A stretch of DNA of 64,000 bases. Origin: a virus. The stretch spans positions 15,198 through 79,197 of the IMG/VR virus record IMGVR_UViG_3300046499_000591; one strand, 5' to 3'. The notes below the pieces were generated by a model. It was given only the letters and a program-made list of their open reading frames with translations, was not told the DNA's origin and searched no databases. The position numbers were made by a program, and so were the translations under genes. This document shows, in pieces, positions 7,686-45,500 of this stretch. Position 1 is the stretch's first letter. Each line of letters starts with the position of its first letter.

Positions 7686-10600
7686 GTGTCCGAGGGCACC
7701 CTTCTCCCGCCCGTAGTCGTCCGCCTCATGGGCGACATGACCCAGCTTCGCGGCACCCTCGCGACGGCTCGTACGCAGGTCGACGGCACGGCGAGCGGGT
7801 TCAAGAAGGCCGGCGCCACCGCGTACGCCGGCCTCGCCCAGATGGGCCGCTCGGTGTCCCTGATCGGCGTGGGTGTCGCCGCGGCCAGCGTCAAAATGGC
7901 CGGCGACTTCCAGGCGAAGACGATGGTCCTGCATACCGCGGCCGGCGAGAGCGTCAAGAACCTCGCCACGGTCCGGAAGGGCATCCTCGACATCTCGTCC
8001 GGCACCGGTACCGGCATCGAGAACTTGACCGACGGCATGTACCAGATTGAGAAGGCCGGTTACCGCGGCGCCGGCGGCCTCAAGGTACTCAAGGCCGCGT
8101 CCCAGGGCGCCCGCGAGGAGAACGCATCCCTCGAGTCCGTCACCAACGCGATGACGTCGGTGATGGCGTCGTACCACCTCAAGGCCACGGACTCCGTCCG
8201 TGTCATGAATGGTATGAAAACGGCCGCCGGCGAGGGCAAGATGACCATGGAGGAGTTCGCCGGCTCCCTGTCGACGGTCCTCCCCATCGCCTCGGCGAAC
8301 AACATCAGTTTCGGACAGGTGTCCGGCGCCCTCGCAACGCTCACCCAGCACGGTACGAGCGCCCGCGAGGGCACCCAGGAACTCGCCAACACCATCCGGA
8401 ACCTGGCCGCGCCCAACAACGTCGCGACGTCGACAATGCAGCGGTTCGGACTGTCCTCCACGGACGTCTCCACCAAGCTCGGCAAGCGAGGTCTGACCGG
8501 CACACTGGACCTGCTCACCAAGACCGTGCTCGGGAAGATGGGCAAGTCCGGCACAGTCCTGCTCTCGGCGTTCAACAACTCCAAGCAGGCCGCCTCCAAC
8601 CTCAAGACGATGCTCGAGCAGATGCCTGCCGGCGTGAGGAAACTCGCGACGGGTCTGCAAAACGGCTCGACGAACGTCAAGGCGTACGGCAAGGCAATCA
8701 AACAACTGCCGGCCGACCAGTACGCGATGGGGCAGCAGTTCGCGACCCTCTACGAGAAGTCGCACGGCTTCAACGACGCCCTCAAGCGGGGCGGGCCGGC
8801 GGCGTCCACGTACACCGACTCCATCAAGAAGATGACCGGCGGCGCGACCGGCCTCAACACCACCCTGATGCTCACCGGTGAGAACACCGAGGGATTCAAG
8901 GACCGGGTCGGGAAGGTCAGCGCGTCGTTCAACCACGCCTCCAAGAACGTCGAGGGCTGGGACGCCACCCAGAAGCTTTTCAACGTCCAGATGGCGAAGG
9001 CCAAGCAGACCCTGCAAGTCCTCGCCATCGAGATCGGCACCAAGCTGATACCGGTCATCACGTCCGTGATCAGTTGGTTCGGGAAGCACAAGGACATCGC
9101 CGTCGCCCTCGCGGCGGTCATCGGCGGTGTCCTCGCCCTGTCCGTCGTCGCCTACGCGGCGAAACTCGTCACGAGTGCAGCCAAGACCGTCGGCTCCTTC
9201 GCCAAGATGGGTGTCTCTGGGGTCAAGGCCGGCGCCAACGTCGTCAAGGGCTTCCGTAGCGCTTCCGTCGCCGCGTCCGACGCGTCGGGGATGGCGGGGA
9301 CGTTCGGCGGCAAGCTCCGCAAGGGGTTCGACGCCGCGGCGCGGGGCGCGAAGTCGGCCGGTGGCGCGGTGAAGACCTTCGCCTCCGCCGTCGGCCGGGT
9401 GTCGGCGAGCGCGGGCAAGGCGGCCTGGTCGGGCCTCGTGTCCGGCATCAAGGGCGTGGGCGGGGCCATGAAGACGGCCGCCGTGCAGTCCGCGTCCTTC
9501 ATACGCAGCATGGCCGCGTCGGCGCTCGCCGGGCTTCGGGCGGCCGCCGCGTGGACGGCGCAGAAGGTTGCGCTCGTCGCGTCCGCCATCGCGGAGAAGG
9601 CCGCCGCGCTCGCCCAGTGGGCGCTGAACGTGGCGATGGACGCCAACCCGATGATGCTCATCGTCCTCGGCATCGTCGCCCTCGTCGCCGGCCTGGTCCT
9701 GGCCTACAACAAAATCGGCTGGTTCCGGGACCTCTGCAACGCCGCCTTCCACATGATCGGCGCCGCGGTCGGCTGGGTCGTCGACTTCGTCAAGGCGCAC
9801 TGGCCGTTGCTGCTCGCGATCCTCACCGGCCCCATCGGTATCGCGGTCCTCCTGATCGTCAAATACTGGGGCAAGATCAAATCCGGCTTCCTGAGCGCCT
9901 ACCACGGCACCGTCAACGTCGGAAAGTCCCTGGTCAACTGGATCTCCGGCCTACCCGGGCGGGCGGGGAGCGCCCTGGCCTCCCTCGGCTCCCGGATCGT
10001 GTCGATTGCCACGCGCGCCTGGAACAGCTTCAAGACGGCCACGGTCAACAAGGCCGTTGACCTGATTGCGTGGGTCAAGGGCCTCCCCGGCAAGATCAAA
10101 TCGGGGCTCGGCAACATGGGCAGCCTCCTCCTGTCTGCCGGCAAGGACCTGATCACCGGCTTCATCCACGGTGTCTCGTCGATGGCCTCGGCCGCAATCG
10201 ACAAGGTCAAGTCGATCGGCTCGTCCGCGGTGTCGGGCATCAAGCACGTCTTCGGTATCCGCTCGCCGTCGCGAGTGTTCCGGCAGATCGGTATCTACCT
10301 CAACGAGGGCCTGGTCGACGGTCTCACCGGCAGCACCGCCAAGGTGAAGACGGCGACGAAGCGTATCGAGACCCTCCTCATGCAGACCTACAACAAGGTC
10401 TCCGACCTCAAGGGCACCCACGGCGTCAGCAACAAGTGGGTGAAGCAGCACGAGGCATCGATCAAGAAGCTCGAGGCGTACGCCAAGAGGGAAGACAAGA
10501 TCCTTCGCGCCCTCGCGTCCAAGCGTGACGCGGTCGCCGTCAAGATCAAGGCGGCACAGAAGACCCTCACGGATCTTCAGAAGAAGTGGACCGACGAGGT

Positions 10601-11384
10601 CAAGTCGGTGGCCGACGGCATCAAGCAGGGCTTCTCCATCGTCACCGAGGCCCCGCAAGACGGCGTCGCACTGACCACGCAAGACGTCATCAACAAGATG
10701 CAAGACCAGATGCAGAAGGCCACCGCTTTTGCGGCGCAGCTCCAAGCGCTCCAGAAGAAGGGCCTCTCGTCGGACCTGATCGCGCAGATTGCCGCGTCCG
10801 GCGTCGACGCCGGCGGTGCGACGGCCTCCGCGCTGTCCTCGGCGACCAAGGGCCAGATAGACCAGATCAACGCCATGAACAAGACGACCAACGCCGCCGC
10901 GAACAAGGCCGGCGGGGCGGTCGCCGACGCCATGTACGGATCGGGCATCAAGGCCGCCCAGGGTCTGGTCAAGGGCCTGCAATCGCAGGAAAAGGCCATC
11001 GAAAAGCAGATGGTCAAGATCGCAAAGTCCATGCAGAAGGCAATCAAGTCCGCTCTCGGGATTCACTCCCCGTCGCGGGTGTTCGCTGCGATCGGCCAGT
11101 GGGTCCCCCGGGGCCTGGCGGCCGGCGTCGAGGGCGGTACGCACCACGCCACCCGCGCCGTCACCCGCCTCGCCGGGTCGGTGGCAGCGGCCGGCGCGGG
11201 TTCGTTCGCCGGTAGCGGCCTGGCCATGGGCGGCGGATCACGGGGGGCCGTCGTGCACCAGACCGTGGTCGTGAACGTCGAGGGCCACGTGCTGACGGAG
11301 AAGAAGCTCCGCGACCTCGTCGAGAAGCAGATGCTCCGCCTCGGCATGCGCAACTCGACGACGTACGCGCCGTACCGGCGCTGA
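7686..11384 (+). CDS. Tape measure protein (TP901-like)
   Basis: 1232 aa, Ala/Gly-rich and helical; AMDANP..IV..I motif, Trp-spaced repeats, GIxSPSRVF twice. Confidence 0.92.
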   Translation: MSEGTLLPPVVVRLMGDMTQLRGTLATARTQVDGTASGFKKAGATAYAGLAQMGRSVSLIGVGVAAASVKMAGDFQAKTMVLHTAAGESVKNLATVRKGILDISSGTGTGIENLTDGMYQIEKAGYRGAGGLKVLKAASQGAREENASLESVTNAMTSVMASYHLKATDSVRVMNGMKTAAGEGKMTMEEFAGSLSTVLPIASANNISFGQVSGALATLTQHGTSAREGTQELANTIRNLAAPNNVATSTMQRFGLSSTDVSTKLGKRGLTGTLDLLTKTVLGKMGKSGTVLLSAFNNSKQAASNLKTMLEQMPAGVRKLATGLQNGSTNVKAYGKAIKQLPADQYAMGQQFATLYEKSHGFNDALKRGGPAASTYTDSIKKMTGGATGLNTTLMLTGENTEGFKDRVGKVSASFNHASKNVEGWDATQKLFNVQMAKAKQTLQVLAIEIGTKLIPVITSVISWFGKHKDIAVALAAVIGGVLALSVVAYAAKLVTSAAKTVGSFAKMGVSGVKAGANVVKGFRSASVAASDASGMAGTFGGKLRKGFDAAARGAKSAGGAVKTFASAVGRVSASAGKAAWSGLVSGIKGVGGAMKTAAVQSASFIRSMAASALAGLRAAAAWTAQKVALVASAIAEKAAALAQWALNVAMDANPMMLIVLGIVALVAGLVLAYNKIGWFRDLCNAAFHMIGAAVGWVVDFVKAHWPLLLAILTGPIGIAVLLIVKYWGKIKSGFLSAYHGTVNVGKSLVNWISGLPGRAGSALASLGSRIVSIATRAWNSFKTATVNKAVDLIAWVKGLPGKIKSGLGNMGSLLLSAGKDLITGFIHGVSSMASAAIDKVKSIGSSAVSGIKHVFGIRSPSRVFRQIGIYLNEGLVDGLTGSTAKVKTATKRIETLLMQTYNKVSDLKGTHGVSNKWVKQHEASIKKLEAYAKREDKILRALASKRDAVAVKIKAAQKTLTDLQKKWTDEVKSVADGIKQGFSIVTEAPQDGVALTTQDVINKMQDQMQKATAFAAQLQALQKKGLSSDLIAQIAASGVDAGGATASALSSATKGQIDQINAMNKTTNAAANKAGGAVADAMYGSGIKAAQGLVKGLQSQEKAIEKQMVKIAKSMQKAIKSALGIHSPSRVFAAIGQWVPRGLAAGVEGGTHHATRAVTRLAGSVAAAGAGSFAGSGLAMGGGSRGAVVHQTVVVNVEGHVLTEKKLRDLVEKQMLRLGMRNSTTYAPYRR

Positions 11385-14871: not shown

Positions 14872-15420
14872 GTGGCACGCACGGTGCCCGTCATCGCATC
14901 CGAGAGCCCGGGAAACTTCCTGACCGGCGCCTTGTGGAACGCCAACGTCAAGGCGATGGGCGACTGGCTCATGGGCTCGGCCGGTAACGGCATGCCCAGG
15001 TTCCGCGGCTATCAAGCCACGGCCCAGGCCGTCGCCAATAACACCTGGGTCAGCGTCACCCTCGACACCGAGCAATACGACTCCGACAACGGCCACTCGA
15101 CCACGACGAACTCCAGCCGGTACACCGTGCAGGTCCCCGGCACGTACCTGATCGTCGGCAGTATCGGCATGGTCGCGAGCGCCACCGCCAACCGTGCTGT
15201 CCGGATCACCGTCAACGGATCACCGATTCCCGGTTCGTTCGTCAAGACGGGCGCGCCGGACGCCAGCGGCTCGTCTGGGCTCGTCTCGGTGACCACTGCT
15301 GTCTGCGCGGTCGGTGACTTCATCGAGGTCCAGGTCAACCAGAACTCCGGCGGGACCCTCAACACGGCGGCCGCCGGCGATGTGGCGTGCTCGATGGCCG
15401 CGACCTGGTTTACCGGCTGA
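14872..15420 (+). CDS. Minor tail / receptor-binding tip protein (C1q-like beta-sandwich)
   Basis: GGAGG RBS; SRYTVQVPGTYLI and GDFIEVQVNQNSGG motifs; last tail gene before a terminator. Confidence 0.65.
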   Translation: MARTVPVIASESPGNFLTGALWNANVKAMGDWLMGSAGNGMPRFRGYQATAQAVANNTWVSVTLDTEQYDSDNGHSTTTNSSRYTVQVPGTYLIVGSIGMVASATANRAVRITVNGSPIPGSFVKTGAPDASGSSGLVSVTTAVCAVGDFIEVQVNQNSGGTLNTAAAGDVACSMAATWFTG

Positions 15421-28830: not shown

Positions 28831-28921
28831 GGCCACAGCCCCGCGTGCGCGGGGAGCAGCGGTAGCCCGGTGGTCGACCTACAGTCTCCGCATGGGCCAT
28901 ACCCGACACGTCGGGTGGTGC
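28831..28921 (-). CRISPR. Type I-E-like single-spacer mini-array 1 (degenerate repeat - 33-nt spacer - canonical repeat)
   Basis: Minus strand: GCACC-ACCCGA-CGTG-TCGGGT-ATGGCCCA, spacer TGCGGAGACTGTAGGTCGACCACCGGGCTACCG, then CTGCT-CCCCGC-GCAC-GCGGGG-CTGTGGCC; both repeats have the 5+16+8 I-E geometry. Confidence 0.75.
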
Positions 28922-28996
28922 TCGACCGAGGAGAGGTGTATCTATCTAGGCGAAAGCACACCTGAAGTTGTTGCTTCGATGGTGCCTCGGTCGAGC
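28920..28996. ncRNA. Candidate structured RNA abutting mini-array 1
   Basis: 12-bp closing stem GCTCGACCGAGG/CCTCGGTCGAGC enclosing AGGTGT..GC-GAAA-GC-ACACCT and GAAG..CTTC helices. Confidence 0.45.
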
Positions 28997-29042
28997 GGTT
29001 CAACTATGGCACAGGCCGCTGACACCGTGCAGCCGAACCGGG

Positions 29043-29682: not shown

Positions 29683-29768
29683 GCGGTCACCTCCGCATGC
29701 GCGGAGCAGAATCCGGCTCCTCGGCGAGCAGCAGCCAAGGGCGATACCCCCGCGTTTGCGGGGAAGAG
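29683..29768 (-). CRISPR. Type I-E-like single-spacer mini-array 2
   Basis: Minus strand: CTCTT-CCCCGC-AAAC-GCGGGG-GTATCGCC, 28-nt spacer CTTGGCTGCTGCTCGCCGAGGAGCCGGA, then TTCTG-CTCCGC-GCAT-GCGGAG-GTGACCGC. Confidence 0.72.
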
Positions 29769-29816
29769 TTCGACGTCATGATGGCACACTCCGCCGGCAG
29801 CGGGCGGGGAACCGGG

Positions 29817-30171: not shown

Positions 30172-31401
30172 ATGCCCCACTACGCCGACACCGGGGGGAG
30201 CGCAGAGAGCAACGGGCAGCGCCTTGCCCGCCTCCGTGCGCGCCACCGGTGGACTCAGCAACGCCTGGCAGATGAAGCCGGGTACTCTCTCGCAGCCGTG
30301 AAAGCCTACGAACAAGGGCGCCGCAGCCTGGACCGCCCCGCCGTGGTCCTCGCGTTCGCTCACGCCCTGGACTGCCATCCCACCGAGATCACCGGCGGCC
30401 CGTACTCGCCGGTGTCCACCGACACCGAGGGGCAGGTCGCCGTCGCGGCCGTCGCCGCGGTACGCCGCGCCCTGCTGCGGCACGGCCGCCCCACCAGGCC
30501 GGAGGAGCACGAGGTTGCCGCTGTCGACCTGCCGGAGCTACGGCGACGCGTCGCCGAGGGCAACGCCTTCCGCCAGGCCGCGGCTTTAGCGAAGTCCGGT
30601 CCCATCCTGCCCGCACTGCTCCGCGACCTCCAGGTGGCCGCCGAGGTGTGCGAGGGCGACCAACGCCGGGAAGCCTTCGGGCTGCTCTCGTCGGCGTACG
30701 AGTGCGCCATGCAGTACCTCTACAAGCTGGGCCACACCTCGGATGCCACCCTGGCGACCGAGCGGGTGCTGTGGTCCGCGCAGGAGTCCGGCGACCCGCT
30801 CCGCATCCTGGCCTCGCACTGGTACGACGCCGGGGAGTTCCTGTCGATCGGCGAGCACGACGAGGCCGGCGCCATCATCGACGACGCCCTGACCGAGCTG
30901 GGGACGGTCCGCGACCGTACGCCGGAGGTGGTGTCCCTGTGCGGCGCGTTCCTCCTCAAGGCATCGCTGAACTCGGCCCGCTCGGCGGACAACCGGGGCG
31001 CCGAGCAACACCTGGCGAAGGCGAAGACCGCGGCGGAGGAGCTGGGCGGCGACCGCAACGACTACCAGCTGCAATTCGGGCCGACCAACGTGGCCATCTG
31101 GGGTGTGTCCTTGCCGGTGGAGATGGGCAAGGGCCGCGTCGCCGTGGACCGGGCCGAGGGGGTGCGCCTGCCGGCGCAGTTCTCCCCGGAGCGGCACTCG
31201 CACCACTTCATCGACGTGGGCCGCGCGCACTTCTACAACGGGCAGCGCGAGGCGGCTATCGGCGCGTTCCTCAAGGCGGAGCGGCTGGCACCGCAGGCGA
31301 CCCGCATGCATGCCGGTGTGCGGGAGACCGTCGGCACGATGATCCGTACTCAGAAGCGCGGTGAGCTGGTGGAGTTGGGTATCCGGCTCGGCGTCGTGTG
31401 A
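30172..31401 (+). CDS. XRE-family HTH regulator with helical/TPR-like C-terminus
   Basis: GQRLARLRARHRWTQQRLADEAGYSLAAVKAYEQGRR HTH; FGPTNVAIW and ER.APQ motifs typical of Streptomyces XRE proteins; contains a TTA codon at 30586. Confidence 0.88.
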   Translation: MPHYADTGGSAESNGQRLARLRARHRWTQQRLADEAGYSLAAVKAYEQGRRSLDRPAVVLAFAHALDCHPTEITGGPYSPVSTDTEGQVAVAAVAAVRRALLRHGRPTRPEEHEVAAVDLPELRRRVAEGNAFRQAAALAKSGPILPALLRDLQVAAEVCEGDQRREAFGLLSSAYECAMQYLYKLGHTSDATLATERVLWSAQESGDPLRILASHWYDAGEFLSIGEHDEAGAIIDDALTELGTVRDRTPEVVSLCGAFLLKASLNSARSADNRGAEQHLAKAKTAAEELGGDRNDYQLQFGPTNVAIWGVSLPVEMGKGRVAVDRAEGVRLPAQFSPERHSHHFIDVGRAHFYNGQREAAIGAFLKAERLAPQATRMHAGVRETVGTMIRTQKRGELVELGIRLGVV

Positions 31402-43018: not shown

Positions 43019-43933
43019 CTAGTCCACCGTCACACCCGCCTCGGTGAGTGCCGCGTTGAGGACCCGCACTAGGTCCCGTACCCGCGCCGGATCCTTGCGG
43101 ACCGCCTCGCGCACGGTCTCCGGCACGAGCAGCTTCGCGGCCCGCTCCACGACGGCGCCCGGGTCGGCGGCCGCCGCGAGCGCCGGCGTCTCCTCGGGGT
43201 CGACCCTCGTGGTGATGCCCAGGAGTGCCTTCGCCTTCTCCAGCTCGTCGGGGGTCGGCGTCGCCCCCTTCTTCGTCTCGCACGCCGTCTTCCAGATCTT
43301 GACGACCCGGTCGGCCCCGTGCTGCAACCGCACCGAGTGCAGCGCGTCGACCTGCCGGGAGGACAAGTCCTCGAGGACGTAGCCGGCGCCCCGAAGGACC
43401 GCGAGGAGCGGGAGCGTCTGCGTGATCCGGTAGCCGGTGCGTTCCGAGAGGTCGTGTTGCTCGCGGAGGTACTTCGCGAAGGACCGGTAGGTCTTCCCGT
43501 CGTTCCCCTTGATCAGCTTGTAGAGCTTGTGCTCGTGGACCCAGCACAGGTACGGGCCGGCCGCGGCGATGAACTCCTCGTTGGCCGCGTCCACCTTCGC
43601 CTTCCACTGGGCCTTCGCCCCGTGGATGCCGCGCTCGCACACGGCGAGCTGTTCGGCCGGCTCGGCGTCCGGGCTGGGCAACGCCGGCGGCACGAACGCC
43701 GTCGGCGCCACGAACGTCGGCATGACCACGGCCGGGGCCGCGGCGGGTTCCGCGGGACGGGTGGCCGGGACGGCCGCCGGCTGCGCCCCGCCGACGGGTG
43801 CGTCTCCCTGCTCCCCGCCCTTTGTCTCCTCCCACTCCGCCATCACCTGCGCGCGCGTCCGGACCACCGGCGCCGGAGCGCCCGGCGGCTCCAACCCCGT
43901 CGACGGCAGCTCCTTGGGCTTGTACTTACTCAC
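43019..43933 (-). CDS. ParA partner (non-canonical ParB-like DNA-binding protein)
   Basis: ATGA overlap with parA; disordered basic N-terminus; LY...YRSFAKYLREQHDLSERTGYR HTH-like motif; no GxxR ParB-CTPase box seen. Confidence 0.65.
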   Translation of the reverse strand: MSKYKPKELPSTGLEPPGAPAPVVRTRAQVMAEWEETKGGEQGDAPVGGAQPAAVPATRPAEPAAAPAVVMPTFVAPTAFVPPALPSPDAEPAEQLAVCERGIHGAKAQWKAKVDAANEEFIAAAGPYLCWVHEHKLYKLIKGNDGKTYRSFAKYLREQHDLSERTGYRITQTLPLLAVLRGAGYVLEDLSSRQVDALHSVRLQHGADRVVKIWKTACETKKGATPTPDELEKAKALLGITTRVDPEETPALAAAADPGAVVERAAKLLVPETVREAVRKDPARVRDLVRVLNAALTEAGVTVD

Positions 43934-45075
43934 GCCGCCAACTCCTTCGCCACGGCGCGCATCGTCTCCGCCTGCGGGCTGTCCGGCGCGTACTCAAGGA
44001 GCGGGATCTCGTAGTCGGACGACTCGCGGCCCTCCACGGAGTCCTTGAGGTGGGCCAGCACACCGGGCGTCGTGAGTTCGTTCCACGCGTCGTAGAACGA
44101 CCGGGTCACCGTGCCCTTACGGGAGTCGTACGCGTTGACGATGATGCCGAGCTGGTCGACGACGATGCCGGTCCGCTCGCACTGGGTGACGATCTGGTTG
44201 TTGAGGAGCTTGTACGCGCGGAACGACGACTTGTCGGCCCACACGGGGACGAGGACACCGGAGCGCTCCATCAGCTCACCCGGCCGGCGCTGCACGTAGT
44301 CGATGGCGAGGTCGAGGCCGAGCCCGAGGTTCGGCGGGCCGTCGAGGAGGACGACGTCGTAGTTGGCCTCGACGGGGGCGAGGGCGCGGGCGAGGCAGGT
44401 GTCCCGGCCGGCGCGCATGGAGGCGAGTTCGGCGTCCATGAGGAACGCGTCCTCGGAGGCCGGCAGTATGTGCAGCCGTCCACCGAACCGCTCGCCGTCG
44501 AGGGCGATGATGGACCGGGCGAGGTGCGTCGCGGCCTTGCCGAGCATGTGCTGGAGGAGGCTGTCGCCGCCGAGCGGAAGTTCGGCGACCTGGAGCCGGG
44601 CGGAGAGGTGGCCCTGCGGGTCGTAGTCGACGAGGAGGACGCGGAGCCCCATCTCGGCGAGGGCCTGGCCGACGCCGGCAGTGATGAACGTCTTTCCTAC
44701 GCCGCCCTTTTGATTGGCAATCAGGACGCGCTGCACCGGTTGCGACACGAGCCGGTGTTCCGGGGACGGGTGGGCCTTGAGCCACACCGTGACCGCTTGC
44801 GCCATGCCCTGGACCTTGGTGAGTCCGCGGGCGTCGCACTCGGCTTCGAAGCGTGCCGGGCCGCCGGGAGGGAGGAAGACGCCCCACGACTTGGCGCCCT
44901 CGACCGGGACCGCGTCGGCGGCCGGCGCGGCGTACCAGAGGTTGAGGGCGTGGGCGGCGGCGTCCTGGACGTTCACCCCGTGCTCGGCCGCACGGATCTT
45001 GAGGTCCCGCCGCATCGACGGCATGAGGTTGACAAGCAACTTCTCGCGCGCGTTGTCAGGTGTTTCGGTCGTCAT
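43930..45075 (-). CDS. parA: ParA Walker-type partition ATPase with N-terminal tandem RHH-like extension
   Basis: IANQKGGVGKT deviant Walker A; VLLVDYDPQG, YDVVLLDGPP and IPLLEYAP.S..AE motifs. Confidence 0.92.
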   Translation of the reverse strand: MTTETPDNAREKLLVNLMPSMRRDLKIRAAEHGVNVQDAAAHALNLWYAAPAADAVPVEGAKSWGVFLPPGGPARFEAECDARGLTKVQGMAQAVTVWLKAHPSPEHRLVSQPVQRVLIANQKGGVGKTFITAGVGQALAEMGLRVLLVDYDPQGHLSARLQVAELPLGGDSLLQHMLGKAATHLARSIIALDGERFGGRLHILPASEDAFLMDAELASMRAGRDTCLARALAPVEANYDVVLLDGPPNLGLGLDLAIDYVQRRPGELMERSGVLVPVWADKSSFRAYKLLNNQIVTQCERTGIVVDQLGIIVNAYDSRKGTVTRSFYDAWNELTTPGVLAHLKDSVEGRESSDYEIPLLEYAPDSPQAETMRAVAKELAA

Positions 45076-45500
45076 GGCGAGCAAATTACCAGTCTCGGTT
45101 CCGGATGCCGGTGGGACGCCACACAACGACACCGGAGGGTGACCCGGGCGGCCGAACGCGCGTACACATCGGGTGGCGTGGTGGGGTGGCGCGTTGCCGT
45201 GACGTCGCTCTACAATCACCCGCATGCCGGGGCTTTCCCCGGCGACCTTGAAGGACTCGGCCGTCCTCTTCGCTTGTGATTCATGTCGGCAAACCTGGGC
45301 ATGAGCGGAGGGGGCGGCTCCTTTATGCGTGATCACCTGCGGGTAAGGTGATCAGCCGTGCGTTACGAAGGGGACTAGACATCACGGAAACAGTGGCGGC
45401 CGGCAAGTCGGTCTGTCACCCTGCCGATAGGGATACCGGTAGTTTCGCGTTGTCTGCCCGCGGAGAAACGCCATTCCAGCTAAGCGTGAAGAGAGACCCG

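Follow-up and report, generated by a model that had tools for sequence, protein, structure and literature searches.

A stand-alone type I-E-like mini-array in a Streptomyces phage-plasmid that may supply a guide RNA to host Cascade

The element and the locus

The IMG/VR virus record IMGVR_UViG_3300046499_000591 is 98,216 bp long with a G+C content of 71%, and the window analysed here is the 64,000 nucleotides that run from position 15,198 to position 79,197 of that record. The record encodes a tape measure protein, a minor tail protein, an endolysin and a weak match to a head protease, together with a ParA-like partition protein and a single-strand annealing protein. Tail and lysis genes thus occur together with a ParA-like and an integrase-like gene, which identifies the element as a temperate tailed phage of the phage-plasmid type; it probably exists as a phage-plasmid and does not integrate as a prophage. 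In the window the tail and lysis genes lie at 7686-11384 on the plus strand and the gene for the ParA-like protein at 43930-45336 on the minus strand; the contigs of relatives are ~98 kb long.

The locus of interest holds two small arrays of CRISPR-like hairpins, which we call mini-array 1 and mini-array 2. The neighbours of mini-array 1 encode an integrase-like recombinase, a GP88 protein, a DUF732 lipoprotein, an XRE regulator and a resolvase-domain protein. Mini-array 2 (29683-29768, minus strand) consists of two I-E-like hairpins, with stems CCCCGC/GCGGGG and CTCCGC/GCGGAG, 28 nt apart, and lies 0.8 kb upstream of mini-array 1 on the same strand. Between the two stands the gene for P0006 (29043-29651, minus strand), a 202-aa winged-helix-like protein with a Cys/His-rich tail, whose start codon follows the end of mini-array 2 by 31 nt. 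The divergent gene for the XRE-family regulator (phrog_5823; 30172-31401, plus strand) is also found beside the P0006 locus in the relatives L148, L150 and L215. The 98-kb record, with an estimated completeness of 89%, gave no match to Cse1 or Cas6e, so any processing of these hairpins must rely on host proteins. Hosts that possess the I-E machinery are common: of 381 Streptomyces genomes sampled, 158 have Cse1. The sequencing runs that contain the mini-array sequence are DNA metagenomes only.

Anatomy of mini-array 1

Mini-array 1 is oriented on the minus strand, in the order first repeat (R1), 33-nt guide, second repeat (R2) and terminator hairpin. R1 (28921-28893) is made up of the flank GCACC, the stem arms ACCCGA and TCGGGT around the loop CGTG, and the 8-nt I-E-type handle ATGGCCCA (28900-28893). 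The guide, or pseudo-spacer, occupies 28892-28860 and starts TGCGGAGACTG, and R2 (28859-28831) follows with the flank CTGCT, the stem arms CCCCGC and GCGGGG around the loop GCAC, and the tail CTGTGGCC. When the sequence was read again and parsed, the coordinates of the initial annotation proved right, as did its description of the R1 stem as rewritten yet wholly paired: all six pairs are Watson-Crick, and pairs 1 and 6 are A-U in place of the canonical C-G, with both sides altered. Its sum of 8+33+21 = 62 nt for the would-be product is likewise correct, and 62 nt is also the period of mini-array 1.

Directly 3' of R2 lies a GC-rich terminator hairpin with a 12-bp stem (28828-28798, minus strand), which is shared with the convergent DUF732 lipoprotein gene. 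Upstream of R1 there is a leader (28921-28995, minus strand) with an AT-rich core and an 11-nt inverted repeat, CTCGACCGAGG at 28995-28985 and CCTCGGTCGAG at 28931-28921, part of which folds into a long hairpin in an RNA fold. Further upstream, ~80 nt from R1, stands a promoter-like extended -10 motif, GTGCCATAGT (29003-29012, minus strand), which is recognised by its conservation; a scan with consensus promoters found nothing. R1, R2 and the terminator hairpin all form in an RNA fold of the unit (z = -2.7), and an Rfam gathering scan of the window matched no family.

Match to host type I-E repeats

The 19-nt core of R2 is present in more than 120 actinobacterial I-E loci, from Streptomyces, Micromonospora, Nocardiopsis and other genera, mostly as long arrays with a 61-nt period. 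The consensus of these loci is CTGCTCCCCGCGCACGCGGGG followed by the handle ATGG[T/A/C]CCC, and it shows that the initial annotation was right to say that R1 keeps a handle, since ATGGCCCA is a natural variant of the host form. The view of R2 as a near-textbook Streptomyces I-E repeat stands for one half only: the first 21 nt match the commonest I-E repeat of actinobacteria at every position, whereas the 8-nt tail is degenerate. The halves that have been kept, the handle of R1 and the hairpin of R2, are precisely those that remain in one mature crRNA. In its dimensions, too, the unit is that of a type I-E array, with a 29-nt repeat, a 6-bp GC stem, a 4-nt loop and an 8-nt handle of type ATGGNCCN, and with a 33-nt guide and a 62-nt period beside the usual 32-33 nt and ~61 nt; the cognate cas genes that accompany a complete system gave no Cse1 or Cas6e match in the same 98-kb record.

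Such a resemblance is hard to ascribe to chance. There are 144 perfect 6-4-6 hairpins on both strands of the 98-kb genome, and an RTGNNCC handle follows only one of them, which is R1; first-order Markov genomes contain on average 0.5 perfect hairpins with such a handle. R1 also stands in exact register with R2, the single canonical repeat, and as R1 is the only handle-bearing perfect hairpin where 0.5 are expected, arithmetic from the hairpin counts makes its placement in the correct 62-nt register upstream of R2 an event of ~1e-5.

Relatives and conservation

Homologues of mini-array 1 were found in a 98.5-kb contig of a Streptomyces sp. isolate (L149; GCA_042791555.1) and in a metagenome contig (L166), the latter through a search of JGI metagenomes with the guide core. 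The closest relatives of the phage, L003 and L148, lack mini-array 1, which is thus dispensable, and it is rarer than the hairpin arrays that precede P0006 homologues. The three elements share the leader, with the extended -10-like motif GTGCCATAGT at the same place and the 11-nt inverted repeat, the arms of which are kept with small changes in L149 and L166. All three have a valid I-E handle and a canonical R2. Their flanks differ, by an insertion of ~100 nt and by extra hairpins; the terminator hairpin stands directly after R2 in this phage and in L149. In L166 (3860-3660, minus strand) R2 is followed by three more hairpins, with stems CTCCGC/GCGGAG, CTCTGC/GCAGAG and CTCCGC/GCGGAG, and beyond R2 there is a second, 32-nt spacer-like segment and then a terminator, so that a unit of this type can belong to a longer, multi-guide array.

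The stem and handle of R1 in L149 are identical to those of this phage, and L166 has the near-canonical, paired stem CCTCGC/GCGGGG. Where this phage and L149 have A-U at pairs 1 and 6, L166 has C-G; pair 3 is C-G in the first two and U.G in L166. Across the three elements, then, two pairs are changed on both sides and one becomes G.U while 18 of 18 cells remain paired, a covariation that traces to one lineage split among three homologues, two of which share the R1 state. These pairs were counted by script in ungapped register, as MAFFT shifts the R1 of L166 by one base.

The guide is conserved unevenly. Positions 1-20 are invariant in the three elements except for position 3 (C/T) and position 6 (A/C), which gives the 5' pattern TG[C/T]GGNGACTGTAGGTCGAC; over positions 21-33 only 5 of 13 are invariant, against 18 of 20 in the first part (Fisher p = 0.005, three elements). 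Position 6 is the base that is flipped out by I-E Cascade. The pairing of R1 and the conservation of guide positions 1-20 together point to selection that preserves both the processing hairpin and the PAM-proximal stretch of the guide. Such a combination, seen here in three sequences, is what would mark a crRNA-like regulatory guide, and it speaks against a remnant in decay as well as against a pure decoy. The claim that selection keeps the processing signal is thereby borne out in two homologues, in which the R1 stem stays paired while its sequence differs and the handle stays valid. The accompanying suggestion of a regulatory or decoy guide fares differently in its two parts: the distribution of invariant positions favours a guide, and the conservation of that guide speaks against a pure decoy.

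Host CreR-like mini-arrays and the search for a target

Many of the 65 Streptomyces cas3/cse1 upstream regions that we collected carry mini-arrays of the host. In five loci (L138, 4274-4440; L135, 7945-7800 on the minus strand; L220; L264; L278) these lie upstream of cas3 or of a cas3-cse1 fusion, and 100-300 nt further downstream there is a site that their pseudo-spacer matches and that has CAAC in front of it. Experiments on the type I-E system of S. mobaraensis have established AAC as its PAM (PMC13572051). In four of the five guide/target pairs position 6 is mismatched, and several host pseudo-spacers begin TGNGG, like the guide of the phage. The five pairs of pseudo-spacer and CAAC site indicate, at the level of sequence, that CreR-type autoregulation exists in the likely hosts. 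The target site in L138 overlaps a TTGACA -35-like hexamer.

The guide of mini-array 1 was then compared with the cas promoters of such hosts. Across the 65 upstream regions the best match covered 13 of 16 scored positions (guide 1-20), lay inside a coding sequence and was no better than those of shuffled guides, and none of the element-borne spacers gave a match above controls there. No host pseudo-spacer in the 65 upstream regions or in ~120 array loci had at least 9 PAM-proximal bases in common with the guide. The initial annotation had proposed looking for seed matches next to a PAM in host cas promoters and in competing elements; the former gave nothing above shuffled guides in the 65 regions, and the latter nothing above controls in phages, plasmids, IMG/VR and metagenomes.

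Within the phage's own 98-kb genome, with every sixth base ignored, the best match was 19 of 28 in total with seed runs of at most 8, which is the level of chance, and no match lay near mini-array 1 or had an AAC PAM. A relative (G001, 49 kb) and the Streptomyces phage Ignacio likewise contained no target of the guide. Among 50,697 INPHARED phage records, blastn returned only chance matches of 20/21 nt in tail genes of mycobacteriophages (E = 2), and 72,556 PLSDB plasmids held no protospacer; two plasmid matches, H20 and H21, were set aside as ordinary arrays. Exact degenerate patterns found no target in IMG/VR, and the 57 matches in JGI metagenomes were all due to chance except for the homologue L166. 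Discarded matches include those of 20 nt in L195, L200 and L183, which lie in AT-rich intergenic DNA beside an Lrp/AsnC-type gene, and one in L173, which is unrelated sequence.

Host chromosomes gave a similar picture. The full guide with up to 3 mismatches had no target in 401 Streptomyces genomes, and in the same genomes an AAC or AAG followed by the seed gave 9 matches against ~13 in a backward control; the best of these (L141 and L144, 21/28) lie inside a coiled-coil gene and were rejected. With up to 1 mismatch the conserved 20-mer found 1 match in 401 Streptomycetaceae genomes, against ~15 in the control. A 14-nt match in L099, at the end of a transposase-like ORF, was dismissed. Together the genome-wide searches covered ~770 Streptomycetaceae genomes, a set that excluded the strains carrying the elements L149, L150 and L152.

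P0006 and similar hairpin arrays elsewhere

P0006 matches no Pfam or NCBIfam family and has no tblastn match in phages, and a comparison with PDB folds returned nothing significant beyond weak winged-helix regulators. Its homologues occur only in Streptomyces genomes or elements and in soil metagenomes, several of them on contigs of ~97-130 kb. Each of the 12 relatives examined has 2-6 I-E-like hairpins ahead of the gene. The stems of these hairpins differ from one another through compensated changes (CCCCGC/GCGGGG, CTCCGC/GCGGAG, TCCCGC/GCGGGA), and a variant promoter-like motif, GTGCCATCAT, precedes mini-array 2 in this phage and its relatives. A GTGCCAT[A/C][A/G]T motif is found upstream of every inspected homologue (window 29683-29787, minus strand; L003, L148-L152, L213-L218), and the last hairpin stands ~30 nt before the ribosome-binding site. 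The segment between the last two hairpins, which takes the place of a spacer, is itself an inverted repeat, conserved and with arms that covary (CTTGGC/GCCGAG, CTCGGC/GCCGAG, CTTGG/CCAGG, CCTTG/CAAGG), and these arms give it the look of an operator or of a third hairpin, not that of a guide.

An integrated relative in the chromosome of Streptomyces mexicanus (LR732544.1; L219, 10001-12897) contains a P0006 homologue, then a gene for a 229-aa protein and a solitary gene for a 465-aa Cse1-like protein, which matches TIGR02547 with 85 bits in its N-terminal half only. This gene lies at the edge of the element beside leuS, and no further cas gene stands within 20 kb of it; additional, weaker Cse1 matches are found in many Streptomyces genomes. 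Between genes of phage Ignacio (MT451980.1; L002, 1270-1600) lies an array of six degenerate I-E-like repeats, unannotated and with a spacing of ~48-62 nt, and the same array is found in Piccadilly, Vondra, Eklok, Cumberbatch, AxeJC, Eastland and HFrancette. It ends just upstream of the start of gene 54, the product of which is weakly similar to P0006 in the latter's C-terminal half (pairwise E = 1e-4, 32% over 112 aa).

Comparison with known systems

Several kinds of crRNA-like RNA invite comparison. Host crRNA-like RNAs such as CreA and CreR, stand-alone I-E mini-arrays near cas3 and prophage copies of them have been described, and degeneration affects the distal repeat, not the first, in many of the stand-alone mini-arrays (Shmakov et al. 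2023, 10.1101/2023.03.03.530964). The premise of the initial annotation, that a degenerate first repeat and a conserved second one characterise such RNAs, is thus inaccurate by the same account. Mini-array 1 is like the CreR/CreA units in having two repeats, one of them degenerate, and a guide with a conserved seed, and its repeat family is that of the Streptomyces CreR-like mini-arrays upstream of cas3 or cas3-cse1. In contrast to those units, which lie inside cas loci, have an AAC-flanked match in the neighbouring promoter and in many cases degenerate at the distal repeat, mini-array 1 has non-cas neighbours in a record in which no Cse1 or Cas6e was detected, has its proximal stem rewritten, and shows only chance-level matches to its own genome where an adjacent cas or creT promoter should match. 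Membership of the CreR/CreA class is excluded on these two grounds, the missing cas locus and the missing adjacent target, and the analogy drawn in the initial annotation is not borne out, as neither a cas locus nor a nearby or host cas-promoter target was found. A CreTA-type unit was rejected as well, because no toxin-like target adjoins mini-array 1.

Closer parallels are found among viruses. Cracrs are viral crRNA-like anti-CRISPR regulators that redirect host Cascade; they have been described experimentally, with validated I-E arrays and with candidates that target CRISPR-Cas loci of Actinomycetota, and are defined by at least 9 PAM-proximal matches to a host CreA/CreR pseudo-spacer (Liu et al., 10.1101/2024.10.29.618823). 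Like them, mini-array 1 is encoded by a virus or plasmid, here a tailed phage with a ParA-like gene, outside any CRISPR-cas locus, has repeat-like hairpins on either side of its guide and a putative promoter and terminator of its own, and would depend on host Cas proteins; I-E examples and stacked arrays exist among Cracrs, too. It differs in that no CreR seed match of 9 bases or more was found in the 65 upstream regions and ~120 array loci, in its host genus, Streptomyces, and in its 33-nt guide, compared with the 24-nt pseudo-spacer of the validated I-E Cracr (10.1101/2024.10.29.618823). With virus-borne mini-CRISPR arrays it has in common a cas-less virus, a single spacer and repeats of the host type, but the spacers of those arrays match related viruses, whereas no protospacer for this guide was found in phages, plasmids, IMG/VR, metagenomes, G001 or Ignacio and its PAM-distal part is unconserved. 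Racrs are repeat mimics in phages, often encoded near anti-defence genes (Camara-Wilpert et al. 2023, PMC10651486), and mini-array 1 shares with them and with solitary repeat units the phage-encoded mimicry of host repeats. Racrs sequester Cas proteins and need no guide, however, while the guide is the most conserved part of mini-array 1, with 18 of 20 positions kept in its first part and 5 of 13 in its distal part; the hairpin arrays of the mini-array 2 type, with their odd spacing, fit the Racr class better. As CreR/CreA is excluded and membership of the Cracrs is unproven, mini-array 1 is placed in a broader known kind, the virus-borne crRNA-like RNAs or mini-arrays, and it appears to resemble known crRNA-like RNAs in every feature testable here.

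A guide for host Cascade

We consider it most probable, with a probability of about 0.6 for the proposal and its mechanism together, that mini-array 1 is a stand-alone gene for a single type I-E crRNA-like RNA, and that it belongs to a temperate phage-plasmid of Streptomyces whose record yielded no cas genes. Transcription would start from the element's own conserved promoter-like motif and end at the hairpin after R2, and host Cas6e would cut the R1 and R2 hairpins at their 3' base. The product would be a 62-nt RNA starting AUGGCCCA, with a canonical 5' handle, the 33-nt guide and a canonical 3' hairpin, which host Cascade would load instead of a host crRNA. The conserved PAM-proximal 20 nt would then steer Cascade to a fixed DNA site, to the benefit of the element. 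Given that no cas genes were detected and that the guide is conserved in two related elements, it is most likely that mini-array 1 borrows the CRISPR machinery of its host, and this conservation points to a guide under selection rather than to a remnant or a pure decoy. We infer that mini-array 1 acts as a regulator: binding without cleavage, and so transcriptional control of a promoter of the host or of a rival element in the manner of Cracr or CreR, seems the most likely outcome, and interference against a competing element a less likely one.

One step of this scheme deserves caution. Cas6e reads both the sequence and the shape of the stem and straddles its terminal pair (PMC3902920), and R1 has A-U rather than C-G at the bottom of its stem; cleavage of R1 is therefore not assured, and the A-U pair may lower or block it. 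That two elements have the compensated R1 state in common suggests that it is tolerated.

The strictest form of this idea holds that the guide copies a host CreR pseudo-spacer, so that host Cascade represses its own cas3/cse1 promoter and I-E immunity is switched off. Such RNAs exist as a class that includes I-E arrays and Actinomycetota (10.1101/2024.10.29.618823), Streptomyces I-E loci carry CreR-like mini-arrays with AAC-preceded downstream sites (L138, L135, L220, L264, L278), AAC is the PAM of a Streptomyces I-E system (PMC13572051), and the TGNGG start is common to several host pseudo-spacers and the phage guide. Against this, the best match in the 65 cas3/cse1 upstream regions (13/16) is in coding sequence and no better than shuffled guides, no host pseudo-spacer has 9 or more PAM-proximal bases in common with the guide, and AAC/AAG-plus-seed matches stay at control level in 401 genomes, which leaves a copy of host CreR unlikely but far from negligible. 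Distinctly doubtful is a role as an ordinary spacer by which host Cascade-Cas3 would destroy a competing phage or plasmid and so exclude superinfection. No other role is reported as often for mini-arrays of viruses (Shmakov 2023, 10.1101/2023.03.03.530964), the predicted crRNA is complete and looks canonical, and the phage itself has no self-target; yet no protospacer came to light in 50,697 phage records, 72,556 plasmids, IMG/VR, JGI metagenomes and ~770 Streptomycetaceae genomes, and divergence limited to the PAM-distal 13 nt is unlike selection for full-length interference.

The remaining explanations dispense with a guide altogether. In a decoy of the Racr type the hairpins would soak up Cas6e and Cas7 and the apparent guide would be targetless, for which one can cite the known repeat mimics of phages (PMC10651486), the second hairpin array 0.8 kb upstream, the arrays of 2-6 hairpins before every P0006 homologue and the six such hairpins of Ignacio and its relatives. 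A decoy has no need, however, of a conserved 20-nt guide segment that varies at the flipped position 6, nor of a canonical handle and a canonical 3' hairpin at exact crRNA spacing, and we regard it as quite improbable. That mini-array 1 is the decaying remnant of an array acquired from a host or plasmid, or else a structured 3' UTR or terminator region with no CRISPR role, would agree with its absence from the closest relatives L003 and L148, with the degenerate tail of R2 and the highly structured RNA, and with the single covariation of handle position 4 and guide position 28, which hints at an internal helix. It is very improbable all the same, given the compensatory changes in R1 and the retention of the leader, the handle, the 5' part of the guide and both hairpins in three elements despite their differing flanks.

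We also speculate that the guide belongs to a wider kit by which Streptomyces phage-plasmids hijack Cascade, a tentative and on balance unlikely extension. The kit would comprise a promoter-linked P0006-leader array of 2-6 compensated I-E hairpins, the single-guide unit in some members and the solitary Cse1-like gene in one integrated member, and the guide would redirect host Cascade to a non-cas target, for example a promoter of host defence, of development or of a rival plasmid. If true, this would mean a use of Cascade beyond the mimicry of CreR.

Phage-borne guide mimicry is itself a known kind of phage trick, and the silencing of cas genes by phages has been shown in enterobacteria. The binding site of the present guide would tell whether actinobacterial phages silence cas genes as well or steer Cascade elsewhere. 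Streptomyces type I-E systems are now used as endogenous tools for genome editing. If an RNA of a phage-plasmid does load into host Cascade, it would be a natural modulator of these systems, and its compact cassette of leader, repeat, guide, repeat and terminator would already be tuned to Streptomyces; the compensated stem of R1, moreover, probes the amount of sequence that Cas6e really needs.

As for pairing within the unit, handle bases 4-7 (GCCC, window 28900-28893) could pair with guide positions 25-28 (GGGC, 28868-28865), both on the minus strand. The counterpart in L166 is ACCC with GGGT, in which handle position 4 and guide position 28 have changed together once; none of the main explanations needs this covarying pair.
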